This document shows positions 54,567 through 63,315 of a stretch of DNA of 64,000 nt, piece after piece. The DNA comes from an uncultured delta proteobacterium. Lineage in GTDB: Bacteria > Desulfobacterota > WTBG01 > CAIYCZ01 > CAIRTM01. The position numbers and the translations under genes were made by a program. Position 1 is the stretch's first letter. The number at the start of each line of letters is the position of its first letter. The stretch spans positions 1 to 64,000 of the forward strand of contig CAWDSQ010000035.1 of NCBI GenBank assembly GCA_963804955.1, read 5' to 3'. The notes below the pieces were generated by a model. It had not been told where the DNA came from, ran no database searches, and saw only the letters and a list, made by a program, of their open reading frames with translations.

Positions 54567-55028
54567 ATGAAAACAATTTTAGTTATATATCATTCCCAGG
54601 GAGGCACTACGGAGTGTATGGCGCGGGCTGTAGCCGATGGTGCGGCCGGGATGGAAGGGGCCTGCGCTCTTCTGAAGCGGGCCGTCGAGGCATCCCTTGA
54701 TGATCTTTTGAGCTGCGACGGCCTTGTGATCGGCTCGCCTGAGTACTTCGGCTATATGGCAGGAGCTGTGAAGGATTTTTTTGACAGAACCTATGAAGCG
54801 GGGCATACAGGGAGAAGGTCTTTTCGTAAGCCGTATGCCGTTTTTATTCATGCAGGCAATGACGGCACCGGCGCCCTTGCCAGCATCGAGCGCATCTGCC
54901 GCGGGTATACATTTAAAAAAGTATATGAACCCCTTATTGCCTGCGGCGACGTGACGGACAGTGTGCTGGCGCGGTGTGTAGAGATGGGGCAAACCATCGC
55001 GGCAGGCTGTGTTGAGGGGATTTATTAA
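54567..55028 (+). CDS. Flavodoxin family (WrbA-like) protein
   Basis: YHSQGGTT..MA, GSPEYFGYMAG..KDFFDR, AGNDGTGA. Confidence 0.85.
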   Translation: MKTILVIYHSQGGTTECMARAVADGAAGMEGACALLKRAVEASLDDLLSCDGLVIGSPEYFGYMAGAVKDFFDRTYEAGHTGRRSFRKPYAVFIHAGNDGTGALASIERICRGYTFKKVYEPLIACGDVTDSVLARCVEMGQTIAAGCVEGIY

Positions 55029-55230: not shown

Positions 55231-55635
55231 ATGGAACACATTTCAGATCCTGTAGCCTATGCGCGCGATGTGGTCGGCGGCGACCCCATGGCAACATTTC
55301 TCGGGGTGCATATCGATGAAGTGCGGCAGGGCTATGCCCGCTGCTCGCTTTTAGTAAAGCCTGAATATTTGAATGCCGCTGATCGGGCCCATGGGGTGAC
55401 GGTCTGCGCCGTTGCAGACCAGGCTTTTGCCGTCGCCTGCAACTCTCTTGGTACAAAAGCCCTCGCGGTGAGCCTTAAGCTTACCTATACGGCTGCTGCG
55501 CCTCCGGGTGATATTATCGTTGCCGAGGCAACGCCGGTCAATGTGGGCCGCAAGGTAAGCGTCTGGAAGATCGAGGTGCGCGGCAGGGAAAATGGCCTGA
55601 TTGCCTCCTGCGAAGGAATTGCCTATCATAAATGA
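55231..55635 (+). CDS. PaaI family hotdog thioesterase
   Basis: DP.A..LG, LN....HG.....AD.AFAVACNS. Confidence 0.85.
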   Translation: MEHISDPVAYARDVVGGDPMATFLGVHIDEVRQGYARCSLLVKPEYLNAADRAHGVTVCAVADQAFAVACNSLGTKALAVSLKLTYTAAAPPGDIIVAEATPVNVGRKVSVWKIEVRGRENGLIASCEGIAYHK

Positions 55636-55654: not shown

Positions 55655-56053
55655 ATGCTGAAGAAAAAGAGCAAGGGCATGATCGAGGCCGAGATCAGCG
55701 AGGCCATGATCAAGTTTGAAAAAGAGTATATGGGCCGCGGGCCACTGGAGACAAAAACCTATATTGTTGAAGATATGGTCATCGTGCGGCTTACCAAAGT
55801 GCTGACCCGTGCAGAAGAGCAGCTCACCAGAACAGCCGAAGGTCTGGCGCTCATAAAAAAGGTACGGGTGACGCTGCTTGAAGAGGCCCGTCACCTTCTT
55901 GAGGCCATAATCAAGGATATCGCCGACAGTCAGGTGCTGAGCATGCACACGGATATCAGCACGACAACCGGTGAGAGGGTTATCATTTTCGTTCTTGACC
56001 GTAACCTTGAGGAGGTGTTAAAAAAATCTATTGAAAAACAGAAAGTGTTATGA
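55655..56053 (+). CDS. DUF2294 / MpsC family protein
   Basis: KG.IEAEISEA..KFEKEYMGRGP, L.IKK.R..LLE, V.SMHTDIST.TGERVI.F.L. Confidence 0.9.
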   Translation: MLKKKSKGMIEAEISEAMIKFEKEYMGRGPLETKTYIVEDMVIVRLTKVLTRAEEQLTRTAEGLALIKKVRVTLLEEARHLLEAIIKDIADSQVLSMHTDISTTTGERVIIFVLDRNLEEVLKKSIEKQKVL

Positions 56054-56162
56054 GATAATACAAGAAGATTGGAAGATTGTGTTAAATACCTGAGGCATGA
56101 CACGGGGCGTTCGCGGGCAAAAACCGGCGAAATCCCTTGAGCCGATAAGGTGGTTAATAAAT

Positions 56163-56222
56163 AAGCCAATATCAGACAAGCCCTCTCAATGCGGGCCCGC
56201 TGATATTGGCTTTTTGTTTTTT
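56163..56222 (+). promoter_or_regulatory. Terminator/attenuator hairpin with internal loop directly abutting the pckA SD
   Basis: AAGCCAATATCAG-acaa-GCCC-tctcaatgc-GGGC-ccg-CTGATATTGGCTT-TTTGTTTTTT-GGAGGTG. Confidence 0.7.
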
Positions 56223-56232
56223 GGAGGTGTTT

Positions 56233-58000
56233 ATGGATAGAGCTAAATTCATGATTTTTTGCCCGTAAGGTGATCATCTATACCAGGGGCAAGGTATGCG
56301 AAACGCCGGAAGAGTTGCTGTCAAGCCCGTTGTTTACAGAACTGCTGCGCCGGTATTTTGATGAGCTTGCCGAAAAGCAGTCCTACCTTATAAAGGTGCT
56401 TGGCGACAGGCCGGCCGATGCCGAAACGATCAGCCTGCTTGTGGAAACACTGCGGCATCTTGCAAAGCTGCCGTATACAAAAGTACCCAGCGTGGTGCCG
56501 GGCGCCGAGGTGTTTTTTCGTGACATGGCCCTGATCAGCGAGTTTATCGAGCAGCTTTATAACTACTGGCGCAGCCATGACCGGTTTCTGCTGTGCGATT
56601 CCGAAGGCGACATTCTTGACCAGCGCCCCTACAGGACGTTCAATTTTTCCATAGAAACGCTTACGCATCTGATCCGGAGCGTCTACCGCGACATCCAGGA
56701 GAATATCACGCTGTCGCATCCGCGCATTTACCGTCAGGTCACGGCGGGAGCTGAAATAGCAGCCATATCCCTGCCGCAGAAGCTGCAGCTGCCAGGGGGT
56801 GTCTATGAGAAGCTTTATAAGATACCGGTCATCAGGCAGGTTCTTATCAATCCGCCCCTTATTTTGAACCCGCCCATGAACAAGCGGACCGGGCAGTTCG
56901 TGAAGGTGGAGCGCAACCCGCTTGAGTTAGTGGAGTTTCATCAGGATGAATGGCTCTGCTATCCGGCCAAGGTCGGACCGCTGTTGATACTGGTGTATTT
57001 TCACGCCCGTTTTTTTGAGCTTGGGTTTACCCTGTGCAATCTGTTCGAGCTTGCTGAAGATGAGGATTTGAACAGGCCACCCGATGCTGTCTATGCCTTC
57101 GGCGCGCCAGCCGGCAGCCTTGACGGGCTTGGCGTTTTCCCGACGGTTTTCCATGAAGATGCTGAACATGATTTGCTTGTTGCAGCAGCGCCCTGTGATG
57201 ATGCTTTCGGCTATTTTGGCTATCTTAAAAAAATGGTGCTCACGCTGCACAATATCAAGATGATGCAGGCCGGAAAACTGCCATTTCACGGCGCATTTGT
57301 CAAAATGCTCCTGAACGATTACGGAGAGAAAAATATCCTGATCATCGGCGACACGGGCGCGGGCAAGTCCGAGACACTGGAGGCCCTCAGAACCCTGGGT
57401 GAAGGCCGCATCAAAGGCATGTTTATCATTGCCGACGATATGGGCTCCCTTGATATTGATGAAGAAGGCCGCATCATCGGCTATGGAACCGAGACAGGCG
57501 CTTTTCTGCGCCTTGATGACCTGCAGGCCGGCTATGCCTTTGGACAGATCGACCGTTCCATTATCATGAGCCCCAGCCAGGTGAATGCCCGGATCGTGCT
57601 GCCCGTCACGACCTATGCTATGGTCATGCAGGGCCACAGGGTCGATGTGGTGCTGTATGCCAACAACTATGAGCAGGTTGACGATGAGCATCCGGTCATC
57701 GAGCGGTTTACCTCTGTTGATCAGGCTTTCAGCGTTTTTCGCGAAGGCACGGTCATGAGCAAGGGCACAACTACCTCGAGCGGTATTGTGCACTCTTATT
57801 TTGCCAATATTTTCGGGCCTGCACAGTACCGGCAGGTACATGACCGGCTTGCCACGATATTTTTTAACGCTTTTTTCAGCAAAGACGTTTTTGTCGGTCA
57901 GATGCGCACACGCCTGGGCATTGCGGGATATGAAACCGATGGGCCTGCCCAGGCTGCCGAAGAATTGCTTGAGAGACTACAGCAGGCAACGAATAAGTAG
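56233..58000 (+). CDS. pckA: Phosphoenolpyruvate carboxykinase (ATP)-like, atypical family (frameshift near 56258)
   Basis: YFGYLKKM.LT.HN, PFHGA, GDTGAGKSE P-loop, IADDMG, GTE.GAF.R.DDL; true start MDRAKFMIFARKVII after SD GGAGG. Confidence 0.75.
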
Positions 58001-58144
58001 AAGCCTCAAGAAGGGTAGTGCTATGCGCTGTATTGTGTTTGCTAATTATATTATTAGTACCGCCAAGCAAGCGGCTGGTTTTTTCTTGCGGCGCGCACTT
58101 GCGGATTCATAAATTTACATAGGAACTATAAGTAGTTATATATA

Positions 58145-58174
58145 TTGACAGGGGAATGCTTCGTGTGCTATAAA
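58145..58174 (+). promoter_or_regulatory. sigma70 promoter of the por operon
   Basis: TTGACA-N18-(TGc)TATAAA. Confidence 0.6.
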
Positions 58175-58231
58175 TTCTCCTCTTAAATTAGAAAATGAGT
58201 GGGGTTTTGAAAATATACAGGAGGACACGGT

Positions 58232-58783
58232 ATGCTTGAAGTTCGCTTACATGGAAGAGGCGGGCAGGGATCAGTCACGTCTGCCGAGCTGTTTGCCGAA
58301 GCGGCAATCGGCGAGGGCAAGTACGCCCAGGCTTTCCCCAGCTTCGGTCCCGAGCGCCGCGGCGCGCCGGTGCGGGCCTTTATCCGCATCGACGACAAAG
58401 CCATTCAGCTGCGCAATGAAATTGACGAGCCTGATGTGGTGCTGGTGCTTGATCCCACACTGATTCGGGTGGTCAATGTGACCGAAGGCTTGAAAAAGGA
58501 CGGGATTGTCATCTTGAATACCAGCAAGTCCGTTGCTGAGATCAGGAAAGAGTACGGCATCACGGCAAACGTCGCAACAGTCAATGCCACCAGAATCGCA
58601 ACCGAAAATCTTGGCCGCCCCATTGCCAATACCACCATGCTGGGCGCCCTGATCAAGGTGACCAATGTTATTGCCATCGAATCGCTCAAGGAAGCATTCG
58701 GGCACCGGTTCGGCAAACTGGGGGAAAAGAATTACAAGTCATGCCAGGCAGCTTTTGGCGAGACGGTAATGGAGGGACGCTGA
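58232..58783 (+). CDS. porC: Pyruvate/2-oxoacid:ferredoxin oxidoreductase gamma subunit
   Basis: HGRGGQG.VT, FPSFGPERRGAPV, NT.MLGA. Confidence 0.93.
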   Translation: MLEVRLHGRGGQGSVTSAELFAEAAIGEGKYAQAFPSFGPERRGAPVRAFIRIDDKAIQLRNEIDEPDVVLVLDPTLIRVVNVTEGLKKDGIVILNTSKSVAEIRKEYGITANVATVNATRIATENLGRPIANTTMLGALIKVTNVIAIESLKEAFGHRFGKLGEKNYKSCQAAFGETVMEGR

Positions 58784-58784
58784 C

Positions 58785-59078
58785 ATGGCAAAAAAAGATT
58801 TTGAACTGACCTGGAAAGAGATACCTGTCGGCGTCATCGTGCATGAGCCCGGCAATGCAAGCGAATATCAGACCGGCGACTGGCGCTCGCAGATGCCCGT
58901 GCTGGACAGGGCAAAATGCGTAAAGTGCGGCATTTGCTACCGCTTCTGCCCCGAGCCCTGCATCGTCAAAGACGACGAAGGCTATTATGTGGCGGATCTG
59001 TTCTACTGCAAGGGCTGCGGCATCTGCGCCTATGAATGCCCCAAGGATGCAATAACCATCGTGAAGGAGGAACATTAA
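58785..59078 (+). CDS. porD: POR delta subunit (2x[4Fe-4S])
   Basis: TGDWRS..P, CVKCGIC...CP, YCKGCGIC..ECP. Confidence 0.93.
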   Translation: MAKKDFELTWKEIPVGVIVHEPGNASEYQTGDWRSQMPVLDRAKCVKCGICYRFCPEPCIVKDDEGYYVADLFYCKGCGICAYECPKDAITIVKEEH

Positions 59079-60255
59079 TGGCAAAACGAGTCGGAGCAGA
59101 AGGATCGTTTGCAGTTGCCGAGGCTGTTCGTCTTGCCGATACGGATGTTGTGGCAGCCTATCCCATAACACCTCAGACCCATATCGTCGAGCGCCTCTCC
59201 GAAATGGTGGCCGACGGCGACCTTAATGCAAACTTTATTTATGTTGAATCCGAGCATTCGGCCATGAGCGCCTGTCTGGGCTCTGCGGCTGTTGGCGCCC
59301 GCACCTTTACCTCCACGGCAGGCCAGGGCCTTGAGCTGATGCATGAGGTGCTCTATCTTGCCTCATCCATGCGCCTGCCGATTGTTATGGCGGTTGCCGA
59401 CCGTGCGCTGTCGGGCCCCCTGAATGTCTGGGGCGACCATTCAGACGCCATGGCAACCCGCGAATGCGGCTGGATTCAGTATTTCGGCGAAAACGCCCAG
59501 GAGGTGTTTGACCTGACCCTGTGCGCCTTTAAAATAGCCGAGCATCATGATGTGCTCTTCCCGGTCATGGTGCATATGGACGGTTTCCATGTCTCGCATG
59601 TGGTTGAGCCCTATTTGCTGCCTGACAAAGAAGAGCTCGGAGACTTTTTGCCCCCGATCGACTATCCCTATCCGCTTGACCCCAATAAGCCGGTAACCAT
59701 GGGCGCTTTTGCCCCGCCGGCGGTCTATTCCGAGTGCCGCAAGGCCCAGGATGTGGCTGTCAACAGCACCCATCGGCACCATCGAGAACGTGTGGAACGA
59801 ATTCGGCAAGCGGTTCGGCCGGCAGTACAAGCCGATTGAGACCTATAAGACCGAAGATGCCGAAACCATTCTGGTTTCTATCGGCAGCTTCAACCAGATG
59901 GCAGCGGTAGCAGTCGATAAGCTGCGCGTCAGAAGGCAAAAAGGTCGGCCTTGTCCGGATTCGCCTGTGGAGGCCTTTTCCGCTGCAGGCATTCCGCCAG
60001 GCAGTAAAGTCAGCCAAAAACGTTGTCGTTTTTGAGCGCTCCATGACCTATGGCGGCACGGTGGGCCCGGTCTGCGCCGAGGTAAAATCGGCGCTGTACG
60101 GCATCAAGGGCGCCCCGCGCGTCATGGATTTCATCGGCGGCCTGGGCGGCAGAGACATGAGCCCGAAGCAGTTTGAGGCTCTCTTCAAGCGCGCTCAGGA
60201 AATATTCGACAAAAACCTTGATATTCAATATGAAACGATTGGAGTGAGAGAATGA
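59078..60255 (+). CDS. porA: POR alpha subunit (two frameshifts)
   Basis: AYPITPQT, VESEHSA, DH.D, GLGGRD. Confidence 0.92.
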
Positions 60256-61182
60256 GCACATTTAAATACACTTCAAAAACTTAGAAGCGCCGGGGAACTG
60301 TTCATGCCCGGCCATCGCGCCTGCATCGGCTGCGGCGAAGTGCTTGCCATGCGCCAGGTCTGCAAGGCCCTGGGCAAAGACATTATCATCGCTAATGCCA
60401 CGGGCTGCATGGAAATCATTTCATCGCCGTTTCCCACGACCAACTGGGACGTGCCCTGGATTCACGCGCTGTTTGAAAACACCGCTGCAGTGGCCTCGGG
60501 CGTTGAGTCGGGCCTGGATGCCATGAAGCGCAAGGGCAGGGGCCCTGCGCAGGACGTGACGGTTGTTGCCATGGGCGGCGACGGCTCAACGTTTGACATC
60601 GGCCTGCAGTCGCTTTCAGGCGCCCTTGAGCGCGGGCATAATTTCATCTATGTCTGCTTTGACAATGAAGGCTACATGAACACGGGCATTCAGCGCTCCT
60701 CGGCCACGCCCTTCGGCGCCTCGACCACGACATCGCCGGTCGGCAAAAACAGCATCGGCCAGACAACGCAGAAAAAGGATATGCCCCTCATAGCCCTTGC
60801 CCATCATATACCCTATATTGCCACCTGTACGCCGGCCCATCCGACGGACCTTGCCAAGAAGATCAAAAAGGCAAAGGAGATCAAGGGCCCGGCATATATT
60901 CATGTGTTCAGCCCCTGCCCCACGGGCTGGGGAACGGACTCTGATGTGGCCATCGAGCTGTGCCGGCTGGCTGTTGATACGGGTGTTTTTCCCCTGGGCG
61001 AGTGCGTGTACGGCACCTACGCGCTCACGAAGCACATCAAGGAGCTCAAGCCTATCCGCGATTATATGAAGCTGCAGCGCCGGTTCCGCCATCTTTCCGA
61101 TGATGTGATCGATCAGATTCAGGCGCAGGTGCGTGAGCATTATGAAATTGTCAAGTCCAAGTGCGGCGTGGCAAGTAATTGA
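60252..61182 (+). CDS. porB: POR beta subunit (N-terminal frameshift)
   Basis: GH.AC.GCG, ATGC.E, GGDG, DNEGYMNTG.QRS, PCP.GW. Confidence 0.92.
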
Positions 61183-61342
61183 GTTTTGGTTTTTCGTGGA
61201 AAGCAGCACAAGCCTCCTTGCTACCGGAGGCTTTCTGCTTTCTTTTGACAGCTTCTTGAGAAGGCCCTGTCTTTGTTGCGGGGTGTGGTGTAAGTCCTGC
61301 ACCTATGCAGGTATGCGCTTTTTCACATGCGTTGGAGCACTT

Positions 61343-62366
61343 ATGAACGACGACAATCTGCGAAAAGGGCCATGGCAGGGCCAGCAGCCGCCCGATATCG
61401 CGGAGTTTTTAAAAAAGCTCCGCGAAGGACTGCCGGGGGCCGGTATTATCGGCGGCCTGATCCTGATCGCTTTCATCGCCCTGACCTGCTGCTACAGCAT
61501 ACAGGCCGGCGAGGTGGGAGTCGTGCAGCGCTTCGGGAAGTTCGTGCGCCTATGCAACTCCGGGACTTAACTTCAAAATGCCTGCGGGCATTGAGAGCGT
61601 CATGCGTGTGCCCGACCAGTATATCGCCACGGAAGAATTCGGCATGCGCACCGTGAACCCCGGCGTGCGCACCCAGTATGCCCCGGAAAAGCAGTTCGTC
61701 GACGAGGCGCTTATGCTCACGGGCGACCTTAACTGCGCCCTGGTGCCCTGGATCGTGCAGTACCGTATCAGCGACCCCTATAAGTATGTTTTCAAGGTGC
61801 GCAACCGGCAGCTCATGCTGCGCGACTTTTCCGAGGCTGTTATGCGGCAGATCGTCGGGGACCGCAGCATCAACGAGGTGATCACCGAACGGCTCGAGAT
61901 AGCAACCGAGGCAAAGCGCCAGCTGCAGGCATCACTTGATGCTGCCGAGACGGGCATTCAGGTGGTGAACCTGGAGCTGAAAAACACAACCGTGCCGGAG
62001 CCGGTGCAGCCATCGTTTAACGAGGTCAACCAGTCCGTTCAGGAAAAGGAGAAAATGATCTATCAGGCCCGCGAGGCCTACAATAAGATCATCCCCGAGT
62101 CAAGCGGCGAGGCCGAGCGCGCCATCAAGGATGCCGAGGGCTATGCCCTTGAGCGCATCAACCGCGCCACCGGCGATGCCAACAGGTTTTCCTTTCTGCT
62201 CAATGAGTATATCAAGGCAAAAGACGTGACGCGCCGCAGGCTCTATCTTGAGGCCATGGGCGCGGTGCTCCCGAAGCTCGGCAGCAAATATATTATCGAT
62301 CCGGAGCAGAAAAGCCTTCTGCCGTTTCTGAATCTGAATGAAAAAGCCGGGGAGAAGAAGCCATGA
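61343..62366 (+). CDS. hflK: FtsH protease modulator HflK (frameshift near 61555)
   Basis: QPPD, GVV.RFG, MLTGDLN, VQYRI.DP, VTR.RLYLE. Confidence 0.92.
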
Positions 62367-63315
62367 TGAAGCGTTATGCAGGAATTATCGCAGCACTGGT
62401 GCTCGGCTTTTTTATCTTCGGGCAGCCGTTCTACACGGTTAACGAGACCGAGCAGGTCATTATCACGCAATTCGGCAAGCCTGTCGGTGATGCCGTGACC
62501 GATGCGGGGCTGCATTTCAAGGTCCCGTTTATTCAAACGGTCAACAGCTTCCCTAAAAACCTGCTTGAGTGGGACAGCGATCCCGGCCAGATTCCCACGC
62601 AGGATAAAACGTTTATCTGGGTTTCCGCATTTGCCCGGTGGCGCATAAAAGACCCTCTGGCTTTCTACAAGGCCGTAAACAATGAACGGGCGGCGCAGAA
62701 AAAGCTTGATGACATTCTTGACGCGGCGACATATAATTTCGTGACCTCGCATCATCTGATCGAGATCGTCCGGAGCTCAAACCGGCTGATGAAGGCTGAA
62801 AACATAGTTACGGTCGGGCTTCCCGACAAGGCCGCCGAGCAGCTGCAGATAAAGGTGGGCCGGGAGGAAATGGCGCGTCTCATTCTTGAGCAGGCATCAC
62901 CCGAAGCTCGTGCAGTTCGGCATCGAGCTTGTTGATTTTCGCATCAAGCGCATCAACTATGTTGAGGAAGTGCTCAAGAAAGGTCTATGAGCGCATGATT
63001 GCCGAGCGCAATCAGATATCGGAAAAGTTCCGCTCCGAGGGCAAGGGCGAGAGCAAGAAGATACAGGGCGATCAGGAGAAGGAGCTGCGCCGGATTCAGT
63101 CCGAGGCGTACCGAAAAGTTGAAGAGATCAAGGGTAAGGCCGACGGCGAGGCTACGCGCATCTGCGCCGAGGCTTTCGGCCGCGACCCCGAGTTTTATTC
63201 ATTTGTCATGACGCTGGATATTTATCGCAATGCGCTCAACGCCGATACCAATGCGATACTGAGCACGAACAGCGATTTTTTTAAATACTTTAAAGAATAT
63301 AAACCGTCAAATTAA
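62363..63315 (+). CDS. hflC: FtsH protease modulator HflC (frameshifts near 62900-62975)
   Basis: TQFGKP, GLHFK.PFIQ, RWRI.DP..F, RM.AER....FRSEG, DPEFY.F. Confidence 0.92.

Follow-up and report, generated by a model that had tools for sequence, protein, structure and literature searches.

In the hut operon of Bacillus subtilis, which serves histidine use, the gene of a small regulator, HutP, stands first; a terminator RNA and then the controlled genes come after it on that strand, and HutP is taken to bind the RNA at spaced UAG triplets and prevent the terminator from forming. BglG, SacY and LicT work on the ribonucleic antiterminator (RAT), a weak hairpin with internal loops that shares bases with the 5' arm of a stronger terminator and becomes stable when the protein binds. 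In transcriptional ON riboswitches, such as guanidine-I and the Na+ riboswitch, the 5' leader is structured and conserved, overlaps a terminator and precedes a metabolically coherent set of genes. Here we describe a leader RNA of related layout in a 64,000-nucleotide stretch of DNA (the window) from an uncultured delta proteobacterium of the Desulfobacterota (contig CAWDSQ010000035.1 of assembly GCA_963804955.1), where the RNA lies between mpsC, a gene of the DUF2294 family, and a gene for a P-loop protein that resembles phosphoenolpyruvate carboxykinase (PEPCK). The sensing of CO2 and bicarbonate by non-photosynthetic bacteria is largely open, and the module formed by mpsC and this RNA may point to an undescribed switch of inorganic-carbon genes.

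For Staphylococcus aureus, the available part of Fan et al. 2019 (PMC6689103) reports lower expression of mpsA at 5% CO2 and no phenotype of a delta-mpsC mutant, and it describes MpsC as dispensable, its role not known. A literature search on DUF2294 returned nothing relevant, and searches for a leader RNA of PEPCK or bicarbonate genes (supplements not opened) returned nothing alike, only a candidate in the 5' untranslated region (UTR) of Vibrio pckA. In the window, the MpsC open reading frame (ORF) matched Pfam PF10057 with E 4.1e-38 (130.3 bits where the cut-off is 23, over profile positions 2-111 of 111), this was its sole match in the Pfam scan, which showed no CAT or PRD domain, and a single copy of the gene was found in the genome. 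From the comparison of many genomes we propose that the hairpin behind mpsC is the terminator of an mpsC-linked attenuator, that MpsC would antiterminate through an AAG/AAG internal loop, and that the signal is perhaps inorganic carbon, a reading which we hold with moderate confidence.

The upstream regions of orthologues in related genomes share, between mpsC and the hairpin, the sequence GGAAGA, a helix, a variable hairpin and an RUAAGCC that runs into the terminator. A covariance model (R1) was derived from 40 compact copies whose structure had been set by hand; with the MAFFT alignment A6 as input, RNAalifold returned the terminator alone, and helices P1 and P2 needed the hand-set structure and realignment to the model. 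R1 matched the window with 46.7 bits (E 1.9e-8), which was the only strong match in the genome. The conserved unit has the order (U)UGG-AAG, helices P1a, P1b and P2, and a UAAGCC that forms the base of the terminator. Its conserved core is about 45 nucleotides of rod with large variable inserts (in the window, 52 nucleotides inside P2), and conserved unpaired bases are found in the internal loops. Of the 80 metagenome loci retrieved through an MpsC alignment, 47 carried the motif by a strict text pattern and 60 by R1 at E < 3e-4 (58 of 77 in one search, plus L120 and L138), with eight further, weaker matches in the same position, L170 and L172 among them at E 1.4e-3. The original prediction had put the hairpin forward as part of a candidate attenuation system before the downstream gene, and the presence of a conserved leader RNA at 60 of the 80 mpsC loci speaks for that view.

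The helices of the leader are supported by covariation. In A8, an alignment of 73 R1 matches, 91.1% of the cells pair, against 79.0% after shuffling (0/500 shuffles reached the observed value) and 31-51% with slid partners; compensatory changes occur in 20 of the 23 pairs, and P1a is 98.6% paired. In A12, which holds 25 matches outside the construction of R1 (24 leaders and the reverse strand of the L191 terminator), 91.8% of the cells pair against 70.7% after shuffling, with compensatory changes again in 20 of 23 pairs. The internal loop ACAA/CCG and the GCCC/GGGC stem, which the original prediction had singled out as possibly conserved, are not: terminator interiors across the loci run from 15 to 56 nucleotides of unrelated sequence, and conservation lies upstream and in the first five bases of the hairpin. 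The first five pairs of the terminator (AAGCC with GGCUU) are nearly invariant (AU 70, AU 66, GC 51, CG 68 and CG 70 of 72), while the pairs beyond them covary freely, and the terminator base must therefore be constrained by more than pairing. Rfam 15 gave no match to positions 55900-56400 of the window (mir-283 noise only, E 2.3-3.3) and 0 matches at E <= 1 to five other leader loci.

Other features of the leader were considered and rejected. A small leader ORF ending at the TAA of UAAGCC had no common frame or start (by eye), a pseudoknot of GGAAG with the terminator loops had no consistent complement (by eye), and AAG triplet repeats, as a TRAP/HutP-type site, occurred in the Omnitrophota-type clade only and were absent from the window.

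The leader RNA is linked to mpsC across genomes. Among 80 loci of PEPCK-like genes, mpsC was upstream in 8, and the motif was present in exactly those 8 and in 0 of the 72 others. Whole-genome scans with R1 gave a match in 1 of 150 other genomes of the window's phylum and in 4 of 151 genomes on the Omnitrophota side, and a scan of five hand-picked genomes gave one (G191). When the window's own genome is included, 6 of 6 strong whole-genome matches lay directly behind an MpsC ORF of the same strand; the single weak match (E 3.9e-4) had no such ORF and is probably false. In a Bacillota-type phylum, where PF10057 was found in 80 of 251 genomes, R1 matched at E <= 1e-3 in 18 of the best 30 mpsC loci, and these matches were usually directly 3' of mpsC, many of them beginning within about 15 bases of its stop. 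This near-obligate linkage fits the earlier suggestion that MpsC is a trans-acting, RNA-binding regulator, the binding itself being our proposal.

Some loci deviate from a single leader behind mpsC. Two copies per locus, in tandem or before successive genes, were seen in L010, L111, L151, L218 and L220 (933-1033 and 1192-1291 in L010/L065, 1527-1629 and 2796-2910 in L151, 477-569 and 2791-2877 in L111), and in L196 the R1 match was on the opposite strand. L025 (G006:C142) has a second paralogue of mpsC, behind which lie a promoter-like TTGACA, two hairpins and a terminator. The gene after these is similar at its N-terminus to the consensus of DUF4914 (by eye); R1 scored there at only E 0.41, and the region may hold a diverged leader type.

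Direct reading of the sequence bore out the MpsC ORF, the 13-bp looped hairpin, the second GCCC/GGGC stem and the U-tract leading into GGAGG, as they had been described. The outer stem pairs 56163-56175 with 56200-56212 over 13 bp, the internal loop sets ACAA (56176-79) against CCG (56197-99), and the inner stem of 4 bp pairs GCCC (56180-83) with GGGC (56193-96). Positions 56150-56240 fold with -29.5 kcal/mol (z -3.25), an energy that none of 200 shuffles reached. With G+C in its stems and a U-tract directly behind it, the hairpin has the sequence features of an intrinsic (Rho-independent) terminator. Since only ten bases separate the stem from the Shine-Dalgarno sequence (SD), no promoter fits between the two, again as predicted.

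Expression of the downstream gene need not depend on read-through from mpsC, as the original prediction had supposed, because a sigma-70-like promoter-like site lies between mpsC and the leader (Table 1). The hairpin therefore sits in a 5' leader and not only at the end of mpsC, and the leader transcript would start at about 56065, a few bases 5' of the motif. Sites of this kind that match at least 10 of 12 positions were found in the 90 nucleotides before GGAAG in 32 of 73 leaders, versus 0 of 72 control windows inside mpsC, with 12-38 nucleotides from the end of the -10 hexamer to GGAAG; most Omnitrophota- and Desulfobacterota-type loci have promoter-like sites between mpsC and the motif. 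The contigs from three RNA libraries and from a further, doubtful one are short and few and cover only bits of mpsC and the PEPCK-like gene. One 151-nucleotide contig of a doubtful 'RNA?' library spans 56142-56258, and all these contigs are uninformative on starts, ends and read-through. No sequencing run contains more than 0.42 of the query words.

The genes behind the leader were identified by Pfam scans of the next same-strand ORFs and by tblastn. The next same-strand ORF mostly starts 20-40 nucleotides behind the terminator and its U-tract. PEPCK_GTP stands behind the leader in 25 loci, the family of the window's PEPCK-like gene in about 20 (some behind a GH18 gene), DUF4914 in 6 and AIR carboxylase (PurE) in 3; archaeal-type phosphoenolpyruvate (PEP) carboxylase (PEPcase_2), class I/II aminotransferases and CitMHS transporters are each found in 2. 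One locus each has PurK, SAICAR synthase, biotin carboxylase, an HMGL-like carboxyltransferase, the bicarbonate transporter SbtA, a NuoL-like MpsA/DabB (L206, the one that was scanned of two near-identical twins, the other being L205), a hexapeptide protein and citrate synthase. Judged by family, the common thread of these genes is the fixation, release or import of CO2/bicarbonate together with the oxaloacetate/PEP node. The idea of the original prediction that the hairpin has to do with inorganic carbon thus finds support in other genomes, where the RNA precedes genes for carboxylases, decarboxylases and transporters of inorganic carbon. It had seen no mpsAB in the window, and these genes are indeed absent from the window and its genome region. 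In a spirochaete-type clade (L028, L110, L112, L119 and L111), a GH18-family gene stands between the leader and the PEPCK-like gene.

We propose the following mechanism. The leader would start at its own promoter at about 56065 and would control the PEPCK-like gene by transcription attenuation, taking one of two mutually exclusive folds, an antiterminator rod or the terminator at 56163-56212. The rod would consist of P0, in which AUUGG (56068-72) pairs with CCAAU (56166-70), a symmetric AAG/AAG internal loop, P1a, P1b and P2, and the terminator would need the same CCAAU as P0. Left alone, the leader would prefer the terminator, so that the default state would be OFF. MpsC, encoded directly upstream, would bind the AAG/AAG loop and the closing GG:CC pairs and keep P0 shut, and with P0 held in this way RNA polymerase would read through into the downstream gene. 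Because the module recurs before carboxylases, decarboxylases and genes for bicarbonate/CO2 uptake in at least four phyla, the signal is most likely the supply of inorganic carbon or a metabolite that reports this supply. As to the direction, our guess is induction at low inorganic carbon, which would suit the transporters, the carboxylases and the CO2 repression of S. aureus mpsA.

The predicted P0 was compared among the leaders. When leaders were folded without the 3' arm of the terminator, the 5' arm paired with columns 3-6, the (U)UGG before AAG, in 45 of 72. P0 is 84% paired in A8, with an invariant GG:CC and one pair that is U-A in 42 leaders and C-G in 7, and 82% paired in A12, where a G-C is exchanged for an A-U once. 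Support for P0 as the antiterminator may be called moderate, and it is mostly a signal of conservation. Because P0 is short, the terminator strong and P1a compatible with it, the RNA alone should terminate, and a factor that clamped P0 and the AAG/AAG loop would antiterminate; with its gene always adjacent, MpsC is the natural candidate for this factor.

Several observations weigh against this mechanism. P0 rests mostly on the invariant GG:CC, and the two pairs at its outer end do not form in 21-23 of 72 leaders. When the leaders are folded at full length, 49 of 72 have P1a together with the terminator base in the minimum-energy structure, and only P0, not P1, competes with the terminator. The model of MpsC has no recognisable RNA-binding fold. 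A8 and A12 were both fitted to the covariance model, so that their pair counts lean toward it, although the slid controls and the independent set A12 argue that the helices are real. No R1 match was found in 12-20 of the 80 metagenome mpsC loci and in 12 of the 30 Bacillota-type loci. In three loci, the leader stands directly before an mpsC gene or paralogue (L148 109-213, L207 1279-1390 and L167 2931-3036), which hints at autoregulation or regulator cascades. No connection with inorganic carbon is apparent for some of the downstream genes, including GH18, GT2, MFS and peptidase M48 genes and a P-type ATPase behind an mpsC paralogue, and likewise a Nuo51-like protein and mpsC paralogues behind the leader.

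The lack of a known RNA-binding fold in MpsC would be no difficulty if the leader were a riboswitch, its small ligand (bicarbonate/CO2, an ion related to these, or a metabolite from the oxaloacetate/PEP node) switching it between rod and terminator with no protein involved, and mpsC being a co-inherited neighbour with another role in inorganic carbon. The layout is that of a transcriptional riboswitch, with its own promoter-like site, a structured and conserved 5' domain, an overlapping terminator and an SD; the internal loops hold conserved unpaired bases, and the downstream genes share a metabolic theme. However, a riboswitch needs no fixed upstream neighbour, yet this RNA is tied to mpsC in 6 of 6 strong whole-genome matches and in 8 of 8 versus 0 of 72 PEPCK-like loci, and in Bacillota-type loci often no more than about 15 bases lie between the mpsC stop and its first base. 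The conserved core, being a small rod with large inserts, also resembles a protein site of the RAT kind more than a ligand pocket. We therefore regard a protein-free switch as rather unlikely.

The closeness to mpsC could also mean that the motif belongs to the mpsC transcript, as a 3' UTR with its terminator or as a small RNA made from it, which would act on the stability of the mpsC mRNA or in trans and leave the gene behind it uncontrolled. The motif invariably comes after mpsC, in some loci so close to the stop codon that a promoter would not fit, and in L046, L009, L010 and L123 there are 180-260 nucleotides, even a further promoter-like site, before the next gene. Three observations make such an element improbable: the promoter-like sites between mpsC and the motif (at least 10 of 12 positions in 32 of 73 leaders versus 0 of 72 controls), the usual distance of only 20-40 nucleotides from the U-tract to the next gene, and the functional coherence of the downstream genes across phyla, for which a purely 3' element would give no reason. 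A strong hairpin with a U-tract behind it is all that an ordinary terminator of mpsC would have to be, with the nearby SD a coincidence and no regulatory role; but the sequence upstream and the hairpin base are conserved and covary across phyla, and the base is constrained in sequence beyond pairing. The comparative data already contradict this last explanation, to which we give hardly any weight. The features of the mpsC locus in the window are collected in Table 1.

Table 1. Features of the mpsC locus in the window, with positions counted from its first nucleotide.
Feature	Position	Strand	Remarks
mpsC (DUF2294)	55655..56053	+	132 residues; ATG 55655, stop 56051-56053; proposed trans-acting factor of the leader RNA
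Sigma-70-like promoter-like site	56031..56059	+	TTGAAA 56031-36, 17 nucleotides, GATAAT 56054-59; 10/12, with TG; overlaps the end of mpsC
Leader RNA motif	56067..56215	+	whole covariance-model match; predicted antiterminator rod plus terminator
5' strand of proposed P0 and conserved AAG	56068..56075	+	AUUGG 56068-72, AAG 56073-75; GG and AAG nearly invariant
Helices P1a, P1b and P2	56076..56162	+	P1a 56076-78/56160-62, P1b 56082-85/56154-57, P2 56089-93/56146-50; from the row of the covariance-model alignment
Intrinsic terminator hairpin	56163..56212	+	conserved first five bases AAGCC (56163-67); CCAAU (56166-70) is the putative 3' strand of P0
U-tract TTTTTGTTTTTT	56211..56222	+	runs into GGAGG; read from sequence
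SD and true ATG	56223..56235	+	GGAGG 56223-27, ATG 56233-35; agrees with the N-termini of P0001 and of same-genus genomes
PEPCK-like P-loop gene	56233..58000	+	frameshifted in the assembly; called as a 576-residue ORF from GTG 56270
Promoter-like site before POR gamma	58145..58174	+	TTGACA, 18 nucleotides, TATAAA; near-consensus, read from sequence
POR genes (gamma, delta, alpha, beta)	58232..61182	+	Pfam POR, Fer4, POR_N, TPP_enzyme_C

The gene behind the leader in the window had been called pckA, for a PEP carboxykinase. We found that its ORF belongs to neither PEPCK family of Pfam: no family matched at E <= 0.01, including PEPCK_ATP (PF01293) and PEPCK_GTP (PF00821/PF17297). Among the NCBIfam models, PEPCK NF006821 scored 12.1 bits (cut-off 369) and HPr kinase 13 bits, far under its cut-off. 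There was no Pfam profile match to DUF4914 (PF16260), and in a profile-profile comparison the P-loop region reached DUF4914 with a probability of 89% (E 2.1e-6 over 143 columns), a distant relation; the probability for PEPCK_GTP (hhalign) was only 7.7%. A search of the protein sequence against solved structures gave chance-level rows only, and the ESM Atlas model of P0001, a 95%-identical homologue, aligned to a PEPCK_ATP cluster with a TM score of 0.58 over 399 residues. The protein has a P-loop GDTGAGKSE, a DD motif and an NAR motif, in the order of the kinase motifs of PEPCK and HPr kinase. The family is large, with at least 3,935 proteins at E <= 0.001 among 8,000 candidates scored, and its best 120 relatives are 60-95% identical and mostly 583-590 residues long. 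Some NCBI records give the name 'phosphoenolpyruvate carboxykinase' to members, which is an annotator's label and not a family match. A canonical PEPCK_GTP is encoded on another contig of the same genome (G000:C14:80926-81999), without an R1 match and without mpsC, so that in this genome the leader stands only before the PEPCK-like gene and not before the true PEPCK_GTP. By these sequence comparisons, the downstream gene is PEPCK-like and not simply 'the' PEPCK.

The start of the PEPCK-like gene was also reconsidered. The ATG at 56233 and the long ORF are in different frames, and the shift lies 22 bases after this ATG, in a T-run (56255-56260) that has 6 T in the window and 5 T, with an intact frame, in two same-genus genomes. 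Because P0001 starts MDRAKFKIFARKV and the same-genus genomes have 5 T, the true start is 56233, with a one-base frameshift or error in the assembly. POR alpha and both Band_7/SPFH genes (HflK/HflC-like) of the window are each split over at least two ORFs as well (59036-60255, 61133-62366 and 62363-63315); for POR alpha there is a 267-residue ORF with POR_N, then short ORFs before the beta subunit. These split genes suggest indel errors in the assembly or decaying genes, and as several genes of the window are split, a sequence error is the favoured explanation of the T-run frameshift.

The POR genes further downstream had been counted as part of the system, but they have a promoter-like site of their own. 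Between the PEPCK-like gene and POR there is a gap of 232 nucleotides with a weak hairpin and this site; the consensus promoter scan demands a T at the last position of the second hexamer and missed the TATAAA at 58145-58174. The synteny with POR is seen only in the same-genus G001 locus (two copies, L004/L026) and in two spirochaete loci, and not in the other loci examined. It appears that POR is probably a separate transcription unit, a neighbour outside the attenuated unit. On the 5' side of mpsC, the window has a PaaI-type hotdog thioesterase (55231-55635) and a flavodoxin-like protein (54567-55028), and the same neighbours are found in same-genus genomes.

The AlphaFold2 model of MpsC has a mean pLDDT (predicted local distance difference test score) of 92.4 and contains two alpha-beta-beta units. 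Fold searches with this model found no clear solved fold, the best scores (Foldseek E 0.011 and VIA Z 6.7) being under the level that would mean kinship, and a search of the MpsC sequence against solved structures gave chance-level rows only. Ribosomal uL23 and Bet3/V4R/H-NOX recur among the fold-search rows (Foldseek E >= 0.011, Z <= 6.7), which may be taken as a lead, and no more, toward a ligand-binding fold in MpsC.

A wider reading is offered tentatively, as a possibility that we would sooner doubt than assert: MpsC/DUF2294 could be a new family of RNA-binding antiterminators, this clade together with the leader could be a CO2/bicarbonate switch that is on when inorganic carbon is short, and the PEPCK-like and DUF4914 proteins could be further C3/C4 (de)carboxylating kinases. 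If so, the switch would turn on PEPCK, PEP carboxylase, pyruvate carboxylase, PurE/PurK, SbtA and MpsAB/DabAB in heterotrophic and anaerobic bacteria. The module offers a testable role for MpsC and an RNA family that Rfam 15 lacks, and it defines a cross-phylum set of genes, a putative regulon, for carboxylation and inorganic-carbon uptake. It would also place two widespread, unannotated enzyme families, PEPCK-like and DUF4914, in inorganic-carbon metabolism. Leader and mpsC are short enough for direct biochemical and reporter tests.

Among the known systems, HutP shares with the mpsC module the order of regulator gene, terminator RNA and controlled gene. MpsC is unrelated to HutP in sequence and has no clear match to a solved fold; its putative site is a rod with an AAG/AAG internal loop and not a series of UAG triplets, a separate promoter-like site lies between regulator and leader in many mpsC loci, and the genes concerned serve carboxylation and inorganic-carbon uptake rather than histidine use. 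The logic proposed for P0 and the AAG/AAG loop would be that of BglG/LicT and RAT, by analogy, although MpsC has no CAT or PRD domain, the RNA differs in sequence and shape, and there is no link to the phosphotransferase system. With the ON riboswitches, the mpsC leader shares the structured leader, the terminator and the coherent genes behind it, and it differs from them in the obligate upstream protein gene and in having no Rfam match, for the window or for five other instances. In the MpsABC/DabAB system of S. aureus, mpsC follows mpsAB, its deletion has no phenotype, and an RNA partner is not mentioned in the available part of that report (PMC6689103). That system has an MpsC of the same family and a CO2-responsive mpsA, and a NuoL-like MpsA is found behind the leader in L206.

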